Assembly: GCA_951406725.2 (NCBI GenBank)
Contig: OX597816.1
Span: 107,632,001 to 107,696,000, forward strand
Length of the DNA: 64,000 bases
From: Octopus vulgaris
Taxonomy: Eukaryota
Direction: 5' to 3'
The notes under the pieces are model-generated. The model did no database searches. It saw only the letters and a list, made by a program, of their open reading frames with translations, and was not told the DNA's origin. Position numbers and translations under genes: made by a program. Every line of letters starts with the position of its first letter. The stretch's first letter is position 1. Positions 23,795-59,490 of this stretch are shown in pieces.

Positions 23795-25054
23795 TGAGGT
23801 ATATTCCAGAAATGTTGAAACTTTTTCAGGGGTGACATTTATTAATTTTAAAGTAGTACAAAGTTCTAATCTCCTTCAAAGTAGGATCCTCTGACTTCAA
23901 TATACTTGTTGTAGCACTCCAGCCACTTCGTAAAAGCCCCGTGGAAGTTCTCCAAAGTGAAGGTGTTCAAGACCTTTATCGCAAACTACTTTATCTCAAT
24001 GTTTTCAAAACGGCTATCCTGAGGCTCTCCTTCAGCTTGGAGAATAACCAAAAGGAACAGGGAATTAGATCTGGACTGTAGGGCGGGTGAGAGACAGTTT
24101 GATGTCATCTCTGTCTTGTTGTTGGCTACCAGGACGGAATTGTATCTGGTGCTCTGTGCTCAGGCAGGTGCCATTGACCCAAGTGGAAGAGTTCTGGTGT
24201 TTTGCGACGAAATGTCTTCCCGAACTCCCTGAACTCCATAATAACCTTCACAACGTACATTTGTCAGAGGGAAAGTAGTGGATGTAGACGAACTTTATCA
24301 TGAGTTTCCCGGTGGACTTGCTTGGCCTTCTTGGGTCTGGGGCAGCCAGGATTCTTCCATTGGGCACTTTGTCTCTTGGTATCTGGATCATAACAGTAGA
24401 TCCAGCTTTCGTTACATGTCACCAGAAACTCAAGTGATTTTGTATTGGAGGTAGTGAGCTCAACCATCTCCCTGCTGTCACCAACGCATCTTTCCATCTG
24501 TTCGTTACTGGGAACAAACATTGTACAAATTTTGCACAAGTTCAGATTTTCACGAATACGTCTGTGTATAGTTGCAACGCTAACTCCAAACTGTATACTT
24601 ATTGTCGTTATAGACACACGGCGGTCTTATGAATTTCTTCATCGAGGTCTGATGTTCTGACATCCATCTCTCTGTCACACATATCATCATCTATCACCTC
24701 CTTTCTACAATCCTTGTATGTCTTGAGCTAGCGAAAAGTAGGTAGGTACTTGGCTCATATAAGATAATCTATAAGCAGTCTGGAGCTTCGCATAACACAA
24801 AACTTTATTGCGTGGCGCGCTTCCAAATTGTCCTCATATCCTGACTGCATTCTGTAAACTAATCAGCTGTAACAAGCAGTGCTTAGTAGGGTGTGTTTAA
24901 ATTGCTATTGCAACCATCTACTTCTAACTGGAATTGAAGAAATGGTAGGTGAGCTTATTAATTGTATAGTAATGATATACTAAAATTACAATACTCTAGG
25001 CCAGTTTTAACTGCCCCTCCTAAAAATGTCTCAAACCTTCTGAAATGCATCTCG
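23795..25054 (-). mobile_element. Mariner-like element, heavily decayed
   Basis: ORF 24264-24617 (VTCNESWIYCYDPDTKRQSAQWKNPGCPRPKKAK); degenerate TIRs TA|TGAGGTATATTCCAGAAA and TTCTGAAATGCATCTCG|TA. Confidence 0.8.
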
Positions 25055-38361: not shown

Positions 38362-38842
38362 TTACTCTTTTTACTCTTTTACTTGTTTCAGTCATTTGAC
38401 TGCGGCCATCCTGGAGCATCGCCTTTAATCGAGCAACTCGACCCCGGGACTTATACTTTGGTAAGCCCAGTACTTATTCTATCGGTCTCTTTTGCCGAAC
38501 CGTTAAGTAACGGAGACGTAAACACACCAGCATCGGTTGTCAAGCAATGCTAGGGGGACAAACACAGACACACAAACATACACGCACACACACATATATA
38601 TATATTTGATTTGATTTGATTTAGTTTCAGCTCACGAGCTGTGGCCATGCTGGGGCACCGCCATATATATACATATATACGACAGGCTTCTTTCAGTTTC
38701 CGTCTACCAAATCCACTCACAAGGCATTGGTCGGCCCAGGGATATAGCAGAAGACACTTGCCCAAGGTGTCACGCAGTGGGACTGAACCCGGAACCTTGT
38801 GGTTGGTTAGCAAGCTACTTACCACACAGCCACTCCTGCGCC
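38362..38842 (-). mobile_element. Full SINE family A with another retroposon tail nested in its internal microsatellite
   Basis: Tail at 38362-38600 and head at 38680-38842; the insert at 38605-38662 reads (TTTGA)n..GGCCATGCTGGGGCACCGCC. Confidence 0.85.
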
Positions 38843-38862
38843 TATAGGTATGCATTATATAT

Positions 38863-39023
38863 CAGGAGTGGCTGTGTGGTAAGTAGCTTGCTTACCAACC
38901 ACATGTTTCCGGGTTCAGTCCCACTGCGTGGCACCTTGGGCAACTGTCTTCTACTATAGGCGCGAGCCGACCAAAACCTTATGAGTGGATTTGGTAGACG
39001 GAAACTGAAAGAAGCCCGACGTA

Positions 39024-39060
<37 letters not shown>

Positions 39061-39134: not shown

Positions 39135-40049
39135 GAATGAATATATATATATATATATATACAGGTGAGAAAGTTGGTGTGTGAAAGCACGTGGTTGAAT
39201 ATATAGAAAATAGTAAAAAGTGAAAAAACTACAGAAGGCTTGTTTTAGAAGGTTAAAATATATATATTTGAGTCATTATGTCTGAAGAATGTTATAAATT
39301 TTTTTTCATACAATGACATAGTTTTTGAAGAAAGACCGGTTTCGCGTTCAGCTTTTAAAATTTCTTACATCGTTATGTTTACGTTGAGGAGTGTGGAGGA
39401 GAGTGAGAGAGAGTTCCAGATAAGGGTAGGTAATAAGTGATTTCTTCCGGTGTAAGGGAGATAATCGCTTAATATTTCTTGCCTTTCTTTTGGAGTGAGT
39501 TTCTCTGTATAAGAATGTTGGAATGGTTAAGTGTGGGCTTGTATTTTTCAATGAAGAATGTTTCCTTGTTTAGTCTAATTTGTGTTGGTGTTCCGATAGC
39601 ACATTGAGAAATGCGCAAAGCAACTACTACCACAATTTTTAATCTTTCCATTTTACCAATGTGCTATCGGAACACCAACACAAATTAGACTAAACAAGGA
39701 AACATTCTTCATTGAAAAATACAAGCCCAAACTTAACCATTCCAACATTCTTATACAGAGAAACTCACTCCAAAAGAAAGGCAAGAAATATTAAGCGATT
39801 ATCTCCCTTACACCGGAAGAAATCACTTATTACCTCCCCTTATCTGGAACTCTCTCTCACTCTCCTTCACACTTCTCAACGTAAACATAACGATGTAAGA
39901 AATTTGAAAAGCTGAACGCGAAACCGGTCTTTCTTCAAAAACTATGTCATTGTATGAAAAAAATTTATAACATTCTTCAGACATAATGACTCAAATATAT
40001 ATTTTTTAACCTTCTAAAACAAGCCTTCTGTAGTTTTTTCACTTTTTAC

Positions 40050-40099
<50 letters not shown>

Positions 40100-40637: not shown

Positions 40638-41028
40638 AGCTTTAATTGCATACCTTTAACGTTATCATAAACGAATTCAAAAGATATATATACGTATGTA
40701 TAAAATTATACAGAAAGCGAACTACTAAGTGGTCTCCTTACATGCTGAAAAGATATGTCAAATACCCAACCCAATCCCGTTTCTTCGTGGGTTGAGAATT
40801 TGACATCTCTTTTCAGCATGTAAGGAAACCACGTAGTGGTTCCCCTTTATGTGTATAATTTTATACACCAGTATGTATTTTAAAGATAATTATGGACAAC
40901 GGACATCTTTTGCGCATACTGGCCACTTGTATAAATTATTTTTAATAAGTTTTACCCTTTATATATACATATACATACTTATATATTGGTATGTATTATA
41001 TATCTTCTATATGTAGGAGATGAGGAAT

Positions 41029-41097
<69 letters not shown>

Positions 41098-41960
41098 GAA
41101 ATGAAGAAAATGCTGACAAGAAATTTTAGGCGCGAAACCAAGCAAATCTTAAACAACTCTGGAGTCTCTTTTTTCACATATAAGAGACAGCAAACCCAAC
41201 ATAAAGTCAGATAAGAGAAAAAAAATCTATCAGAAAGGAACTCTATCTCTCTTAAAAAATATCTTTTGATAAGCATAACAAATGCGCAACCGGTAAAAAG
41301 AACTTTCACCTAATTAAATACACTCTCCCTTACTTAAATTATTTTGTCAGCATTTTCTTCATTTCCTTTTTTTATATATCACAACTCGTGTTCCACATCT
41401 CCTTTTTTAAATATATATATATATATATATATAGATATATTGTTATATTTCGGAATGGTCATATTGCCAGTTTAACCATATATATATATATATATATTGT
41501 ATATAGATGTATAACACATTATTTGCATTATTTACAAATGACGGATATTTGTCCTCATCGTGGTTGTTGTTAACACAACGTTTCGGCTGATATACCCTCC
41601 ACCCTTCATCGGGTGTCTTGGGGATAATTTACATGCTGAAAAGAAAAGAGATGTCAAATCCCCAAACCACGAAGAAACGGGGTTGGTTTGGGTATTTGAC
41701 ATATCTTTTTAGCATGTAAGGAGACCATTTAATGGTTCTCTTTCTGTATAATTTTATACACGCGTATATATATATTTTAAGTTCGTTTATGGTAACGTTA
41801 AAGGTATGCAATTAAAGCTACCTTCGGAATGAGAACCCAGTTTCGAAATTTCCCCAAGACACCTGATGAAAGCTGTAGGGTATATCAGCCGAAACGTGTG
41901 TTAACAACAAACAAGTTGAGGACAAATATAAGTGAAATGTAAATAATGTAAATAATGTAT
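40638..41960. repeat. Cluster of overlapping inverted repeats
   Basis: 40638-40822 vs 41629-41819 (inverted); ~40697-40867 self-palindromic; 41095-41128 vs 41333-41368; ~41512-41627 vs ~41847-41960. Confidence 0.85.
41858..41902 (+). ncRNA. Minimal HHR-like motif, with an inverted mutated copy at 41572-41617
   Basis: GACAC-CTGATGA-A-aGCTG..CAGCC-GAAA-CG-T-GTGTT; the inverted copy has CCGATGA and CG-TT-GTGTT. Confidence 0.6.
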
Positions 41961-42051
41961 TATATATCTACATACAATTTATATATATACACATATAATA
42001 CATGTGTTTTATGTGTATATGTATGTATGAAATAAATGAATGCATCCTTTT

Positions 42052-47103: not shown

Positions 47104-47200
<97 letters not shown>

Positions 47201-48798
47201 AAATAGTGAAGAGTGAAAAAACTACAGAAGGCTTAAATGTTAAAAAATATATATATTTGCGTCAATATGTCTGAAGAATATTAGAAAATTAAAAAAATTA
47301 TTTTTTTCTCTTATAATGACATAATCAATCTTTGGAAACCCCCTCTCTCAATACATAAAAGAGAATTGGAAACGATTCTTAGACGATTGTTTTATTCTCT
47401 GGAATGAAAACACAGATAAACTCCTAAAATTTAAAAACCTATTGAACAGCATAAACCCAAATATACAGTTCACAATGGAATACAACCAAAAGGAGCTCCC
47501 GTTCTTGGATATACTAATTAAAAAAATTAACCTTAAAATAGAAACAGACATTTTTTACAAAGCCACAGACGCCAAACAATACCTTCTTTTTAATTTATGC
47601 CACCCAAGACACACTAAATCAAACACCCCCTTCAACCTTGCAAGAAGGATATGCACAATAGTGTCAGAACAAAATACCAGGAACTTTAGACTGCAAGAAC
47701 TCAAAAACACCCTAATTGACAGACATTACCCAGCTCAACTCATAGAGGATGGGATCAGACGTGCAACAGAAATCAACATAGAAACTTTAAGAAAAGTTCA
47801 ACACAACAACACACCTTCCCCGAAAATACTACCTTACATATCTACATACAACCCCAGAAACAAAGAAGCCTTCACCATCATCACCCAGAATTTACCAATA
47901 CTTCATAAAGACCCCAAACTAAAGGAAATTCTAAACATACACCAAATCATTAAAAGCTACGAACAGCCTAAATCACTTAAAAAGATTCTCACAAAGGCAA
48001 AATTGTCTTCTGAAATTACGGATGCAATAGTAAAAAAATGTGGTAGATAGAACTGTGCAACATGTCCTAACCTGCTAGAAGGATCAGAATTCCTCTTTAA
48101 AGAGGGACAGAAATTCAAGATCAAATTTAACTTTACTTGTGCCTCTGAAAACATAATTTATGTCATAAAATGCTCGGGCTGCCACCAAGACTACGTGGGT
48201 TCCACGGGACTATCACTCAGACGTAGATGCACACTGCATCGACAACAGATTGCATTCCCAGAATATAGAATGATACCTTTTAGTGAGCACATTGAGACAT
48301 GCGCAAAGCAACTACTACCACAATTTTTAATCTTTCCATTTTACCAATGTGCTTTCGGATCATCAACACAAATTAGACTAAACAAGGAAACATTCTTCAT
48401 TGAAAAGTACAAGCCCAGACTCAACCATCCGAACATACTGATACAGAGAAATTCACACCAAGGGAAAGGAAAAGATTTTTAAGCGATTATCTCCCTTACA
48501 CCGGAAGAAATCACTCACTACCTTCCCTTATTTAGAACTCTCCTGAACATAAACATAACGATAACTCTATTCAACATAAACATAACGTCGCAAGAAATTT
48601 GAAAAGCTACACGCGAAACCGGTCTTTCTTTTAAATTATGTCATAATAAGAGAAAAAAATTTTTTTTAAAGTTTTCTAATATTCTTCAGACATATTGACG
48701 CAAATATATATATTTTTTAACATTTAAGCCTTCTGTAGTTTTTTCACTCTTTACTATTTTCTATATATTCACCCACGTGCTTTCACAAACCAACTTTC

Positions 48799-48800
<2 letters not shown>
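47201..48800 (+). mobile_element. Penelope-like element (RT C-terminal half, Zn-finger linker, GIY-YIG), 5'-truncated, with an inverted partial pLTR
   Basis: WKRFLDDCFILW, INPNIQFTME..LPFLDI, CHPRHTK, CGR*NCATC, FTCASENIIYVIKCSGC..YVGSTG..RRRCTLH; 47201-47325 is the reverse complement of 48635-48759; both flanks are microsatellites. Confidence 0.93.
48592..48630 (+). ncRNA. Variant minimal HHR (U3-A8 type) in the PLE terminus; copies at 39897-39935 (+) and 39328-39366 (-)
   Basis: AAGAAA-t-TTGAAAA-GC tacac GC-GAAA-CCGG-TC-TTTCTT. Confidence 0.55.
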
Positions 48801-49699: not shown

Positions 49700-52240
49700 T
49701 CTGTTGTTGAATAGATATGTGCTTGTGCTTTGCCTGGAATTAGTGTTAATTTCCGTGTACTTGATAATATTGTGTCTTCCGATATTAGAGATACTAGAAG
49801 AGTCAATGTTATCAGCTAGGTTAATTGCTGTTGGGGATGAGAATGTGACTGTAACTTTACTAAATATGCTATGGAATTTGTGTTTCAGTAGAAAATGTTT
49901 TATTAGTATATCAAAGACGATATCACGTGCTTCTTCTTATGTTCTTAACGCAAGGATCACTAACTTATGTTTCTTCTTCTAGTTGTCTTAGAGTTAGTTT
50001 TTATCTCTTCTTATTTCTTGTGTAGTATTGTTGCAAACCTTAGATTTAGTTCTGTCACAATTATAAGTACTAGTACTAAAAGAATTTTCAGAAGATATTT
50101 CTGTATTCTTAACCTTACAATTATTGTTACTTTTGTCTTTTCATTGTTACGGACGTGGAACGTGAAATATATTAAATTTTCCTGTTATCCGATATTGTGA
50201 TAGCATTACCGTGGTTGATTAGTTTATGCTTCGCTTTTATACTAATGTCGGCTTTTAAGTCTATTAATAGTAACTATAGAAATTGTTTATGCTTTGTATT
50301 TGTCTCTTAGAACATTTATTTCTGTATCAACCGCTCTCCCTTAATTAGTACTTGGGAATTCCGTTATCTTATTATCTTCATATCTATTATCACAATGTTA
50401 TAATCGTTTAGGATCCTTAATTGTTGTAGGTATTAGACAAAAAAGTGTTTAATTTTTCAAATAATTATTAGCAAGAAAATATATTTGTGTATTACTTTTT
50501 GGTTTGGGGAAATGTTTATGCTAATGGTACTGTTTAATTGTTTATAGAGAGAAATTTATGCTATTCTTTTCATTAAAGTCACATCGTTTCAGTTCTTTGT
50601 TATAATATTCTAAATTATATTGGGTTGGCAAAAAAGTAATTTCATTTTTCGCAAATAGATAGAGTTACGAGTTTTTGAATGACTTTTGTCAATGTTATGA
50701 TTTTTTTCCTTTTGACATTTGATAGCCGTTATCTTTAGCTTACTTTAGAAGCTTGCTCGTAATTTTGCTAACGTCTGTTAATTCAGTGTCATTTTGAACA
50801 TGGAGTACGAAAACGAAAATTTTCGCCATGTTTTGCTTTTTATATTTCCGTAAAGACAAGAAAGCTGCTGAGGCTCACAAAGAAATATGTGAAGCGTTGA
50901 TTGCTTAACAGAACCCACCTGTCAGAAATGGTTTGAAGAATTTCGTCCTGGAGATTTTTCCCTCAAAGATGATCAACATTCTGGTCGACCCACCGAAGTT
51001 GATGATGATCGAATCAAAGTCATATTTGAATCTGATTGTCATATAACTGTGCGAGAGATTGCAGAGAGGCTAAATGTATGACGCACAACAATTGAAAATC
51101 ACTTAAAATGTCTTGGACTCAGTAAGAAGCTCAATATCTGGGTTCCACATAAATTGAAAGAGATATACTTAACAGAACGAATCAATATTTGCGATATGCA
51201 TCTCAAACGCAATGAAATCAACCTTTTCTTGAAACGTATAAGCACTTGTGATGAAAAATGGATTGTCTACAATAACATCAATCGAAAACGATCATGGTCC
51301 ATGCGTAATGAACCAGCACAAACCACACCGAAAGCTGAATTGCATCAAAGAAAGGTCATGCTGTTAGTTTGGTGGGATTACAAAGGTGTTGTGTATTTTG
51401 AGCTGCTTTCAAGGAACCAAACGATCAATTCAGATGTTTACTGTAAACAAGTAATGAAGCAATCAGAGAAAAACGGCTAGAATTGGCAAATCATAAAGGA
51501 ATTGTGTTCCACCATGACCACGCTAAACCTCACACGTCTCTGCTAATTCGTGAAAACGTATTGGAAATTGGTTGGGAAGTAATGTCACATCCACCATATA
51601 GCCCTGGCTTTCCATCATCAGATTATCATTTGTTTCGAAGTTTGCAAAATTCTTTGAATGGTAAAACTTTCAATAATGATGATGACCTGTAATCGCACTT
51701 GCTTCAATTTTTGGCTGATAAAGACCAGAAGTCCTATGAGCGCGGAGAGCTCATTGAAAATATGGAAAATATATAATTGATTAAAGTTCATTCATTGTAT
51801 GAAAAAAATGACTTTTATTTCACATTAAAAAACCGAAATTACTTCCTTGCCTACCCAATAATTGAATATCTGGTCATTTCCTGAAAATTTTAATATTCTA
51901 ATTGAAATATGTCTAACAAGATTATGTATAATAGACCTGAGACGATAGAATGCATACAGTGCAATATTTTATTCGCATTGTGGTATGAAAAGTGCTTGCG
52001 AGGGTAACATCAAATAACTTAAATTTTGGCGTTGGTATCAACAGACATAAAAGATTAAAATCTATAAAACAAAACCTTAGTAGGGCCTTTCGAAGTCTTT
52101 CTAAATCTGAAAGGTTACATCTATTTATAATAGTTAAAGCATCATCCCTGTACAAATCGCCACTGATTTTTGGGAGTTAATCCTTCAGTTGATGTGACGA
52201 AAACAGTCCGACCAACTTAGAAGCGTAAATCGAGTCCGAG
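49700..52240 (-). mobile_element. Old PLE RT fragment interrupted by a mariner
   Basis: LVGLF and YRDDALTII..LERLRK..FDVTL (ORF 51922-52155) lie on one side of the mariner; LIKHFLLKHKFHSIFSKVTVTFS (~49840-49910) lies on the other. Confidence 0.65.
50620..51858 (+). mobile_element. Full-length mariner (D,D34D type) with a pseudogenised transposase
   Basis: TIRs TTGGGTTGGCAAAAAAGTAATTTC and GAAATTACTTCCTTGCCTACCCAA, with TA on both sides; WVPHKL, TCDEKW, HHDHAKPH and HPPYSP..SDYHLF. Confidence 0.95.
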
Positions 52241-56281: not shown

Positions 56282-57594
56282 GAGGGAGAGTCTAAAAATT
56301 ATAAGCACAAATACTTTTTGGATGTATCTACACAAAAGTAGGAGATAAACAACTTTGTAATTTTTCTATATAGTATCCTTCTTTACCGATGCACTTGGTC
56401 CAGCAGTCCACTAGCTTGCGTATTCCCTCCAAGAAGAAGGTTTTCTGTTGGTCGTGCAACCATTTATGCACAGCTTCCTTCACATCTTCATCTGTAGAAA
56501 ATCAACGACCTCGTAAACTATCTTTGAGCAGTCTAAATATATGATAGTCGGAAGGAGCGAGATCTGGGCTGTAGGCAGGATGCTGCAGCACCTCAAAACA
56601 CAATTGGTTAATGGTTTCGACGGTCTGTGTGGCCGTGTGTGGGCGTGCATTGTCATGCAATAACAAAACTTTCTTCAACAATAGGCTTCGGTGTTTGGTG
56701 CGAATTGCTGGCTTCAGTTTATTGACCAGCAAAGCACTGTATATTGCACTGTTGATCGTATACCCCTTTTCCAGGTAGTCTTCCAACATAGGCTCTTTTG
56801 AGACTCCTCCAAAAGGGTTAACATCAGCTTGCACGCGAAAGACAGTCTTGAATTTCTTCGTCGCTGGTGAGCCAGGATGTTTCCACTCCATACTCTGAAT
56901 TTTGGATTCTGCCTCATAATTATGGGCCCACATTTCATCTCCTGTAAACATTCTGCTCACAAATTCCTCACCCTCATAGTTGTAGCGATCGAGCAAACGT
57001 ATGAAAACATCAAGACTTTTGCGCTTGTGCTCTGCAGTAAGCTCTATTGGCACCTATCTTTCCACAGACTGTATGGAAGCTGAGCTCATCGTGGATAATT
57101 TGATAGGTGGAACCATGAATAATTCGCAGAGAACGAACTATCTCATCAATGATAACTCGCCGGTTCACCATTACTATCTCTTGAGCCTACTGAATTTTCC
57201 CGTCAGTGGTGGAGGTTGACGAGCATCCTGCTCCCTCTTCGTGCGTTACGCTTATCCGGCCACTTTTAAACTTCTCGATCCACGTATACACACCTGTACA
57301 CGGTTGTATACTGTCCTCGTACTGTGCTAAAAGTCTCCGATGAATTTCAGCAACTGATACACCTTCAGACTAGAGAATTTGGATCACTGCTCTTTGTTCT
57401 TCCTTGGTGTACATTGCTAGAGGAGCGGCCATGCTTACACTTTAAAGTCAGAAAGAAAAATGGCGTGATCCGGCTCAAACTTCGATCGCCTGACCACAAT
57501 AGTACGAACTATAAGCACGCATGCGCAGAATGCAGTGTGACAATTATAAAAATATGTTATGGCGCAAGTGGGGATAATTTTTAACTTCCCCTCG
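56281..57594 (-). mobile_element. Mariner element inserted in (TA)n
   Basis: ORF 56502-57053 (TGDEMWAH..EWKHPGSP..LHDNARPH..HPAYSPDLAPSDYHIF); TIRs TA|CGAGGGAGAGTCTAAAAATTAT and ATAATTTTTAACTTCCCCTCG|TA. Confidence 0.93.
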
Positions 57595-57600
57595 TATATA

Positions 57601-57889
57601 TAGACAACAGTGTGCAATGTTTTACCGAAAAGGAAAACTATAATTGCCACTAAATATGACCAGGGTGTTAGAAACACCTACATTGCTAGAAATAAGAGCT
57701 TAGATGCTCTAATGCTGTAGTTAAAGCACATAATTGTATACATATGTACTGACAGGGACCGTAATTGTCCGAAAGCACTGGTCGAGAATTCCCTATATTG
57801 ATCGGTCAGTTTCGGCTAATTCCGTAGCCTCATCACTAGGGGCCGCTCGACTCGGCTTCTTTCGGACAGGGGCGATTGCGGTCCCTGTC

Positions 57890-57935
<46 letters not shown>

Positions 57936-58068
57936 TATGTGCTTTAACTACAGCATTAAAACTCTTTAGCTGTTATTTCTAGCAATGTAGGTGTTCTCAC
58001 ACCCTAGTCATATTTAGTGACAATTATAGTTTTCCTTTTTGGTAAAACATTGCACACTGTTGTACATA
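57601..58068. repeat. Fold-back element with ~170 bp arms whose loop contains a hammerhead
   Basis: ACAACAGTGTGCAATGTTTTACC..TGACAGGGACCG pairs with CGGTCCCTGTCA..GGTAAAACATTGCACACTGTTGT. Confidence 0.9.
57791..57841 (-). ncRNA. Type I HHR motif, with C3 mutated to G
   Basis: CCCTA-gTGATGA-GGCTA cggaat TAGCC-GAAA-CTGA ccga TCAa-TA-TAGGG. Confidence 0.7.
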
Positions 58069-58180
58069 TTGAATTATTGTATACAGATTAGTGATTCGCT
58101 AAATCATCCATATAATTTTAGGGTGAATACATATGTCCTCACACAGAAGTAAGTCCGCAAAAAGCCAAATCGAGCGGTGG

Positions 58181-58233
58181 TCCCTACTCATGAGTCTACG
58201 GAATTAGCCGAAACTGACCGATCTGTATAGGGA
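58181..58233 (+). ncRNA. Second copy of the same HHR, with G5 mutated to C
   Basis: TCCCTA-CTcATGA-GtCTA cggaat TAGCC-GAAA-CTGA ccga TCtG-TA-TAGGGA. Confidence 0.7.
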
Positions 58234-58994
58234 ATTTTCGACCGGTGCTTTCGGGTGATTACGGTCGTTGTCAGTGCCTATATGCTTCAACTATAGCATT
58301 ATATATATATGATAAAAGAGGGGGTGGTGTTTCCACGTAGGAAAAATATATAGGAATATGTAGTTGAAAATGCACCTAAATTTTAAAAACTCGTAAATGT
58401 TTAAAATACATTTATTTACATATATACCAAACTAGTTTCAACAATATTTTTTTGTTTATCAATGGTAAAAATTTCAAATTAGGAAAACAACTTTAAAAGT
58501 TTCAATGTTAACAAATTAAAATGTTTCAATGTTGATAAACTAACATGTTCAAAACAGAAGCTGTAAGTTTGAGTGTTCATAGCAGTCAATAAGATTAAAA
58601 CTGTATATCAATTTGTTTGAATGTACAAAGTTCATTAATTTTAGTGGTGGCCGACGAGTCATACTGAAAAAAAAAACAAGTGTGAAATGAAAGTAGTAAA
58701 AAAAAAAAGGAATTTGGTTTACAGTTTCTCTGATCCTCTTCTAATAGACGCTTTCACTTGTAGTGTTATGTTTTGGGATCAGATAAATTTATAAGTTTTT
58801 TCGGCGAGCGGATCTAAGTTTTGATTCGTTAAGATACTGGTGATGTTTTTTTTCCGTGGTCAAGCATGTTGTTCTGCTTGGTTGGTTTCCTTATGGATAC
58901 GGTCATAAGTCGTTCCGGTTGGTTGGTTCTCTTAAAGGGTCATTTCGTTGTATTTGCTGAAGTTCGGTTTTGATTGGTCTGGAGTTGGATTTTA

Positions 58995-59490
58995 GGCTCA
59001 CACCAAATTATCAAGAGCAAAATGCAACCAGAATCATTGAAGAAAATATTAATCAACGCAAGACTTTATCCATTAACAACGGATCCAAAAGTGAGAAAAT
59101 GTGGTTGGCCTAACTGCGGCACATACCCCCACATTTTAGAGGGTACAGAACTCCACTTTAAACAAAGTGAAATATTTAAGATTAAATCAAGTTTTACCTG
59201 TGCGTCGGAAAACCTACTCTATGCCATTACCTGTTTAGGGTGCGGTGATCAATATATTGACCTAACAGGAATATCACTCCATCGAAGAACCACGCTTCAC
59301 AAAGAAGAAATCCGCCACCTACAATACAGATATATACCGGTCAGTGAACACATAGAAAGGTGTGCTAGGAAACTTAATACTAATTTCCTAATTTTCTTCT
59401 TCTATAATGTTCACAGAACACCGCAGTACAGCAAAGAATGAATAAAGAAGCAACTTTCCTCAATATCTTGCACAACTCAATATGAATACA
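58995..59490 (+). mobile_element. PLE Zn-finger plus GIY-YIG fragment, a relative of the 47-48 kb element
   Basis: ORF 58974-59441: HQIIKS..SLKKIL..KCGWPNCGT..FTCASENLLYAITCLGC..PVSEHIERCA. Confidence 0.88.

Follow-up and report, generated by a model that had tools for sequence, protein, structure and literature searches.

A palindromic PLE insertion in Octopus vulgaris with its junction at a native 9-bp inverted repeat

A single, 5′-truncated PLE insertion in Octopus vulgaris, made up of two near-identical PLE 3′ ends placed head-to-head in a (TA)n tract, turns at a 9-bp inverted repeat native to the EN coding sequence of the element, and the evidence supports a microhomology-mediated origin for its junction. 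Sequence biased the breakpoint in this palindrome, but no such rule holds for the family. With respect to the mechanism, the favoured reading, held to be about as likely as not, is that reverse transcription was primed on both target strands and that the resulting cDNAs annealed at their ends via the element's 9-bp inverted repeat. All positions refer to the stretch of 64,000 nucleotides that was analysed, hereafter the window.

Structure of the palindrome and of its relative

The features of the palindrome (39163–40055) and of two comparators in the window are collected in Table 1. The initial annotation had placed the turning points of the arms at the two 9-mers, around a 50-nt loop, and had assigned a terminal tail of about 35 nt to the left arm only; these coordinates were confirmed, as was the one-sided tail, which occupies 39163–39198 and measures about 36 nt. 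The arms, compared over 39207–39606 and 39657–40055, are identical in 393 of 400 columns (six substitutions and one gap), and each shares about 87% identity with the relative in ungapped columns. Immediately 5′ of 39598 the sequence is already that of the inverted arm, and the palindrome encodes the C-terminal 46 aa of the PLE protein. Both flanks are (TA)n, in which a target-site duplication is unreadable.

Table 1. Positions of the palindrome, its parts, and the comparator elements in the window
Feature	Position	Strand	Remarks
AC-rich PLE tail, about 36 nt, at the outer terminus, abutting (TA)n	39163..39198	-	Homologous to the relative's tail, 48769–48800
Left (inverted) arm, tailed copy: EN coding 3′ end and pLTR	39199..39606	-	
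9-mer AGCACATTG, junction microhomology; native coding for part of S-E-H-I, whose His closes the CCHH motif	39598..39606	+	
50-nt loop, native EN coding sequence in sense	39607..39656	+	At the equivalent of 48298, has the base of the family majority
9-mer CAATGTGCT; native coding for Q-C-A, unconserved among homologues	39657..39665	+	
Right (forward) copy, tail-less, stopping at the inner terminus, then (TA)n	39598..40055	+	tblastn of homologues matches 39600–39737
Possible degenerate hammerhead-like motif in the pLTR	39897..39935	+	By eye in sequence
Inverted arm of the relative, without tail and short, at about 128 nt; no more than 3 nt of microhomology at its junction	47200..47325	-	
5′-truncated forward copy of the relative, holding the native 9-mers; tail 48769–48800	47326..48800	+	
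Third element, more distant but alike in its terminal design, in (TA)n	41093..41411		Tail-less inverted arm of about 36 nt on the left, junction at 41128, tailed forward end on the right; comparator

The forward copy of the relative encodes the end of the RT core, the thumb, a CxxxxCxxC linker that carries one in-frame stop, and the GIY-YIG EN, followed by the pLTR and the tail. The same 9-mers lie in it at 48286–48294 and 48345–48353, forming an inverted repeat of exactly 9 bp without further extension, around a 50-nt loop that differs from that of the palindrome at one base. This copy had at first been described as an unrearranged relative with the same 9-mers at the same spacing; the 9-mers and their spacing hold, but the relative is itself head-to-head (inverted arm at about 47200–47325) and is native only where the 9-mers sit. 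Among the variants listed (40 of 204), none falls inside either 9-mer, and the loop base of the palindrome is the majority base at 48298, both of which fit a repeat that is native to the family.

In the pLTR, where a hammerhead ribozyme is among the traits by which EN+ PLEs are recognized, the sequence at 39897–39935 holds a possible, degenerate hammerhead-like core. An Rfam scan of 36000–60500 gave no hammerhead match at E ≤ 1, the matches being sub-threshold miRNA and snoRNA ones on microsatellites and on a SINE hairpin, and a pattern scan for hammerheads gave no match.

Identity of the element

For the relative (47328–48479), 124 homologues at E ≤ 1e-3 were found among 3,007 candidates. Those listed (120 of 124) are about 670–810 aa in length, with a best identity of 59% and one of them named from an oyster; most of the homologues carry RT (PF00078) and many carry GIY-YIG (PF01541) domains. 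The Pfam GIY-YIG match on the relative itself (E = 0.0026) falls below the curated cut-off. In an alignment of 16 sequences, the CCHH residues C271, C282/C285, H304, and H321 are invariant, as are the linker cysteines C238, C243, and C246, which correspond to the CX2-5CxxC motif of Neptune/Nematis. Furthermore, the inverted 3′ ends in the palindrome and the relative, together with a tail of about 32–36 nt at one end, fit the layout by which EN+ PLEs are recognized, namely a pLTR in direct or inverted orientation and an optional tail of 30–40 bp. By the definitions in the available part of Craig et al. (PMC8557442), the family is, as judged from its sequence motifs, a C-terminal-EN PLE of the Neptune/Nematis type, the assignment being made from motif definitions on a window copy without most of the RT core.

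An inverted, 5′-truncated copy beside the element and a 30–40-bp tail that is often one-sided count as hallmarks of PLEs in the sections available of PMC8557442; the initial annotation had likewise stated that PLEs often carry inverted partial pLTRs. The head-to-head layout with a one-sided tail is therefore already known for PLEs, and the palindrome is ordinary in structure. Its likeness to EN+ PLEs, as far as these are covered by the accessible portions of PMC8557442 and PMC3846280, extends to the truncated head-to-head copy, the often one-sided 30–40-bp tail, the (TA)n target, and the C-terminal GIY-YIG domain with CCHH and CX2-5CxxC motifs. In contrast, the junctions published in those portions are not mapped to native coding inverted repeats, and the palindrome has near-equal arms and a 50-nt spacer.

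The summed contig depth at 48298 was 493,848 in contig run X1 and 191,461 in contig run X2, compared with 53–104 and 12–35 at the listed joints, which suggests a high-copy family, summed depth not being a copy number. The host genome is AT-rich and rich in microsatellites.

Microhomology at the junction

Microhomology of at least 9 nt occurs at 1.0e-4 of all junction pairs on 47326–48800 and at 1.5e-4 of the pairs within 110 nt. The coincidence of junction and repeat is not attributed to chance, because microhomology of this length is found at only about 1e-4 of random junctions. The repeat as a statistically unusual feature in itself was considered and rejected, since inverted repeats of 9 bp or more number 10 in the relative (47326–48800; 1,475 nt), against a null mean of 5.2; two of these have spacers of at most 100 nt, against a null mean of 0.6. 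Among perfect fold-back-capable cDNA ends on 47326–48762, the 9-mer site ranks first (ΔG −5.05 kcal/mol, the next being −4.0), with a stem pairing probability of about 0.5. By duplex stability (−10.3 kcal/mol), the 9-mer pair comes second among the 305 perfect inverted repeats of 6 bp or more that the relative contains, which speaks for the annealing of two cDNAs.

That the palindrome is a fold-back artefact of the library or assembly, or that junction and repeat coincide by chance, is very improbable. The palindrome junction is not among the joints listed from the contig runs (15 of 37), and the best run contained 0.60 of the locus's sampled words, both of which would suit an artefact. However, the arms differ at seven places, stop at two natural termini, and have different tails, and the flanks beyond (TA)n differ, whereas a fold-back chimera would mirror its flank; a library chimera was rejected on the strength of the arm differences, natural termini, and unlike flanks. 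Chance is opposed by the rate of about 1e-4 per junction given above.

Microhomology cannot, however, separate fold-back of one cDNA, annealing of two cDNAs, and later deletion; it has no discriminating power here, because all three routes yield identical letters. The deletion route is quite unlikely: a longer head-to-head copy would have lost its centre after insertion, through microhomology-mediated deletion between 9-mers lying as direct repeats, one per arm. Long palindromes are prone to central deletion, and 9 bases is long beside the 0–3 nt at other junctions. Microhomology-mediated deletions are also reported for Penelope copies in the available part of PMC3846280. On the other hand, both original arms would have had to exceed 440 nt, the short arms of the comparators being about 128 and 36 nt, and the deletion is an extra event that leaves the original inversion still in need of another model. 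If a later deletion did take place, the junction is uninformative about reverse transcription.

Termini, tails, and the priming of both strands

The three elements in the window share a terminal design consisting of a T-rich end, TATATAT, and an AC-rich tail of about 32–36 nt. Each insertion has one tail (3 of 3), which has a probability of p = 0.125 under coin-flip start sites with n = 3 insertions. The tail lies on the inverted arm in the palindrome and on the forward arm in the relative and in the element at 41093–41411, so that the tail asymmetry of the latter two is opposite to that of the palindrome. The tail-less terminus falls at the same place in four arm comparisons in the window, and 23 contigs of run X1 depart from the reference at 48768 into (AT)n. 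The two termini are 36 nt apart.

A biochemical parallel is provided by PAc, a Poseidon element of Anolis studied by TPRT in vitro (Frangieh et al., 2024; PMC11167929). As described in the accessible part of that paper, the purified PLE protein cuts AT-rich DNA, with both target strands nicked and extended, and its reverse transcription starts at two RNA sites between which the AC-rich tail is the interval; a protein dimer is predicted. PAc differs from the present family in belonging to the Poseidon clade, and in those same sections its two start sites carry no stated link to inverted copies or to the joining of a junction. The two termini in the window are best read, by analogy across clades, as two RT start sites.

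Under priming of both target strands, a nick in the top strand would prime at the outer site, giving a tailed cDNA of 439–444 nt that ends in ...AGCACATTG, while a nick in the bottom strand would prime at the inner site, giving a tail-less cDNA of 458 nt that ends in ...CAATGTGCT. The complementary 3′ ends of these cDNAs would then pair, any flaps would be trimmed, and fill-in would yield the palindrome, its 50-nt loop in sense. No extra step would be needed for the inverted arm to carry the tail, because each strand primes its own cDNA. What speaks against such two-strand priming is that the 50-nt spacer and the first-ranked fold-back energy are predictions of fold-back, less expected from cDNAs of independent length.

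The earlier proposal was that nascent cDNA folded on the built-in hairpin and primed its own second strand. Its junction at a native inverted repeat withstood the analysis, in which the stem ranked first (−5.05 kcal/mol), but simple fold-back did not, the 36-nt tail being present on the copy arm only. In such a snap-back, a single cDNA primed from the right flank would have self-primed at the 9-bp stem and served as its own template. Because the loop is in sense on the plus strand, the first strand under fold-back would be the bottom one, primed from the right flank with the tail-less site as its start; with the tail-less right arm as the template, the self-copy cannot contain the tail, and the 36-nt tail on the copy arm therefore needs a second event. 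For example, the right arm might have shed its tail between its TATATAT and the (TA)n of the flank, or an endonuclease might have trimmed a hairpin intermediate. Fold-back gains from the position of the 9-mers at the top perfect fold-back site on the 1.4-kb relative, from the pairing probability of about one half, from the short loop, and from the 98% identity of the arms; furthermore, R2 offers documented cases of cDNA snap-back at junctions (PMC11371274) and self-priming has been proposed for PLE inverted structures (PMC3846280), each in the part of the source that was available. It loses by the extra step, by the lack of such stems at the other junctions of the family, and by the missing conservation of the 9-bp repeat in 43 related elements; on balance it is unlikely. 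In the R2 case, as presented in the available sections (Zhang et al., 2024; PMC11371274), the cDNA 3′ end likewise primes on itself, leaving an antisense segment at the 5′ junction, but only first-strand content is copied, whereas the inverted arm of the palindrome has 36 nt that are missing from the other arm.

The joining step of two-strand priming is that of the twin priming of L1 (Kojima, 2010, PMC2912911; PMC11702581), in which, according to the portions available, priming takes place from both ends of the target and microhomology at the inversion junction lets the 3′ ends of the two cDNAs anneal. L1, however, inverts an upstream segment that is mostly non-overlapping, whereas here both cDNAs would start near the 3′ end, giving a duplicated palindrome. 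With its two distinct, recurrent termini and 9-nt microhomology, the palindrome is compatible with a product of the twin-priming type, though not exclusively so. A PLE-specific version can be formulated, in which an RT dimer would prime both target strands on one RNA, at two start sites separated by about 35 nt, with the inner cDNA displaced by the outer one and the 3′ ends annealing at native inverted microhomologies; in this detail the scheme is tentative and somewhat doubtful. If true, it would account in one step for the inverted pLTR, the single tail, and the palindrome junction. The origin of the inverted pLTR and of the one-sided tail is counted among the unexplained features of the PLE cycle in the available part of Craig et al. 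(2021; PMC8557442). In this respect the palindrome is an informative single case, since the loop orientation sets the first strand under fold-back and the tail is then on the wrong arm: the clean junction argues against plain fold-back and points to the twin-priming model. A literature search, with subscription papers mostly outside its range, found no report mapping PLE inversion junctions to native inverted repeats or invoking two-strand priming.

Other junctions and related elements

Four junctions were scored, and a long repeat was used in one of them, the other three having 0–3 nt of homology. At the junction of the relative, the arm stops inside an in-frame TAA that is non-native to the coding sequence; the homology there is at most 3 nt, because an in-frame TAA cannot be native coding, the frame being assumed intact. 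The PLE-like inversion at 41478–41996, which belongs to a different family, shares 2 nt, as judged against a second copy at 40638–40878. Among the joints listed from contig runs X1 and X2 (15 of 37), one is of opposite strands (47520/47793), with no shared letters. At other junctions the spacers are long (about 1.3 kb in one, about 215 nt in another) and homology amounts to 2–3 nt, as expected if two cDNAs of independent length join wherever some microhomology exists.

The homologous position was mapped by tblastn in 44 of 73 sequences, and none of 43 related elements has the 9-bp repeat there (stems of 3–7 bp, all under 8 bp). The repeat as a conserved cis-element was rejected, being missing in all 43. 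The 71 related loci, from short assemblies and with 27–78% identity at the protein level, gave a self-inverted match in three and no scorable head-to-head junction. The repeat is a coincidental property specific to this family; it biased a single junction and is no dedicated cis-element. Of the earlier idea that the breakpoint is specified by sequence, the part that stands is the turn of the palindrome at a native 9-bp repeat; the extension to a family rule fails on the three other junctions with 0–3 nt and on the relatives with none in 43.

Independent reads and contigs were aligned on 47326–48800 at 80% likeness. The raw runs X20 and X21 yielded 27 and 24 reads, respectively, mostly partial and divergent, and none of them crosses the palindrome junction. 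In contig runs X1 and X2, where the contig sides are short, that junction is likewise absent from the 15 joints listed of 37; depth at the listed joints is roughly that of a single copy, a weak argument against a junction that recurs often. Metagenome contigs contained no match to an exact 25-nt pattern, and no match was found in viral contigs. In run X21, eight raw reads carry a tandem go-back joint (48389 to 48336, within 48336–48389), which suggests that this part of the EN gene has given rise to a short tandem repeat.

Neighbouring elements in the window

Directly left of the palindrome, at 38663–39038, two tRNA-like SINEs face each other head-to-head across a 24-nt spacer, with a complementarity of about 90%; they may represent independent insertions or the same two-ended priming. 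The element at 41478–41996 is a head-to-head, pLTR-like inversion (86%) with a 215-nt spacer and junction microhomology of 2 nt, and its body is an internally palindromic unit that occurs again in reverse at 40638–40878; near 41863–41897 it has what is presumably a hammerhead-like core. At 57598–58069, MITE-like terminal inverted repeats surround a unit with a hammerhead-like motif, the unit being inverted again at 58153–58281. Another PLE GIY-YIG fragment, 44–49% identical to homologues, is found at 58974–59461, and no inverted arm was seen for it. Finally, broken non-LTR RT and mariner-like transposase fragments were recognized by eye in ORF translations at 489–1186, 24264–24626, 51082–51480, and 56502–57053.
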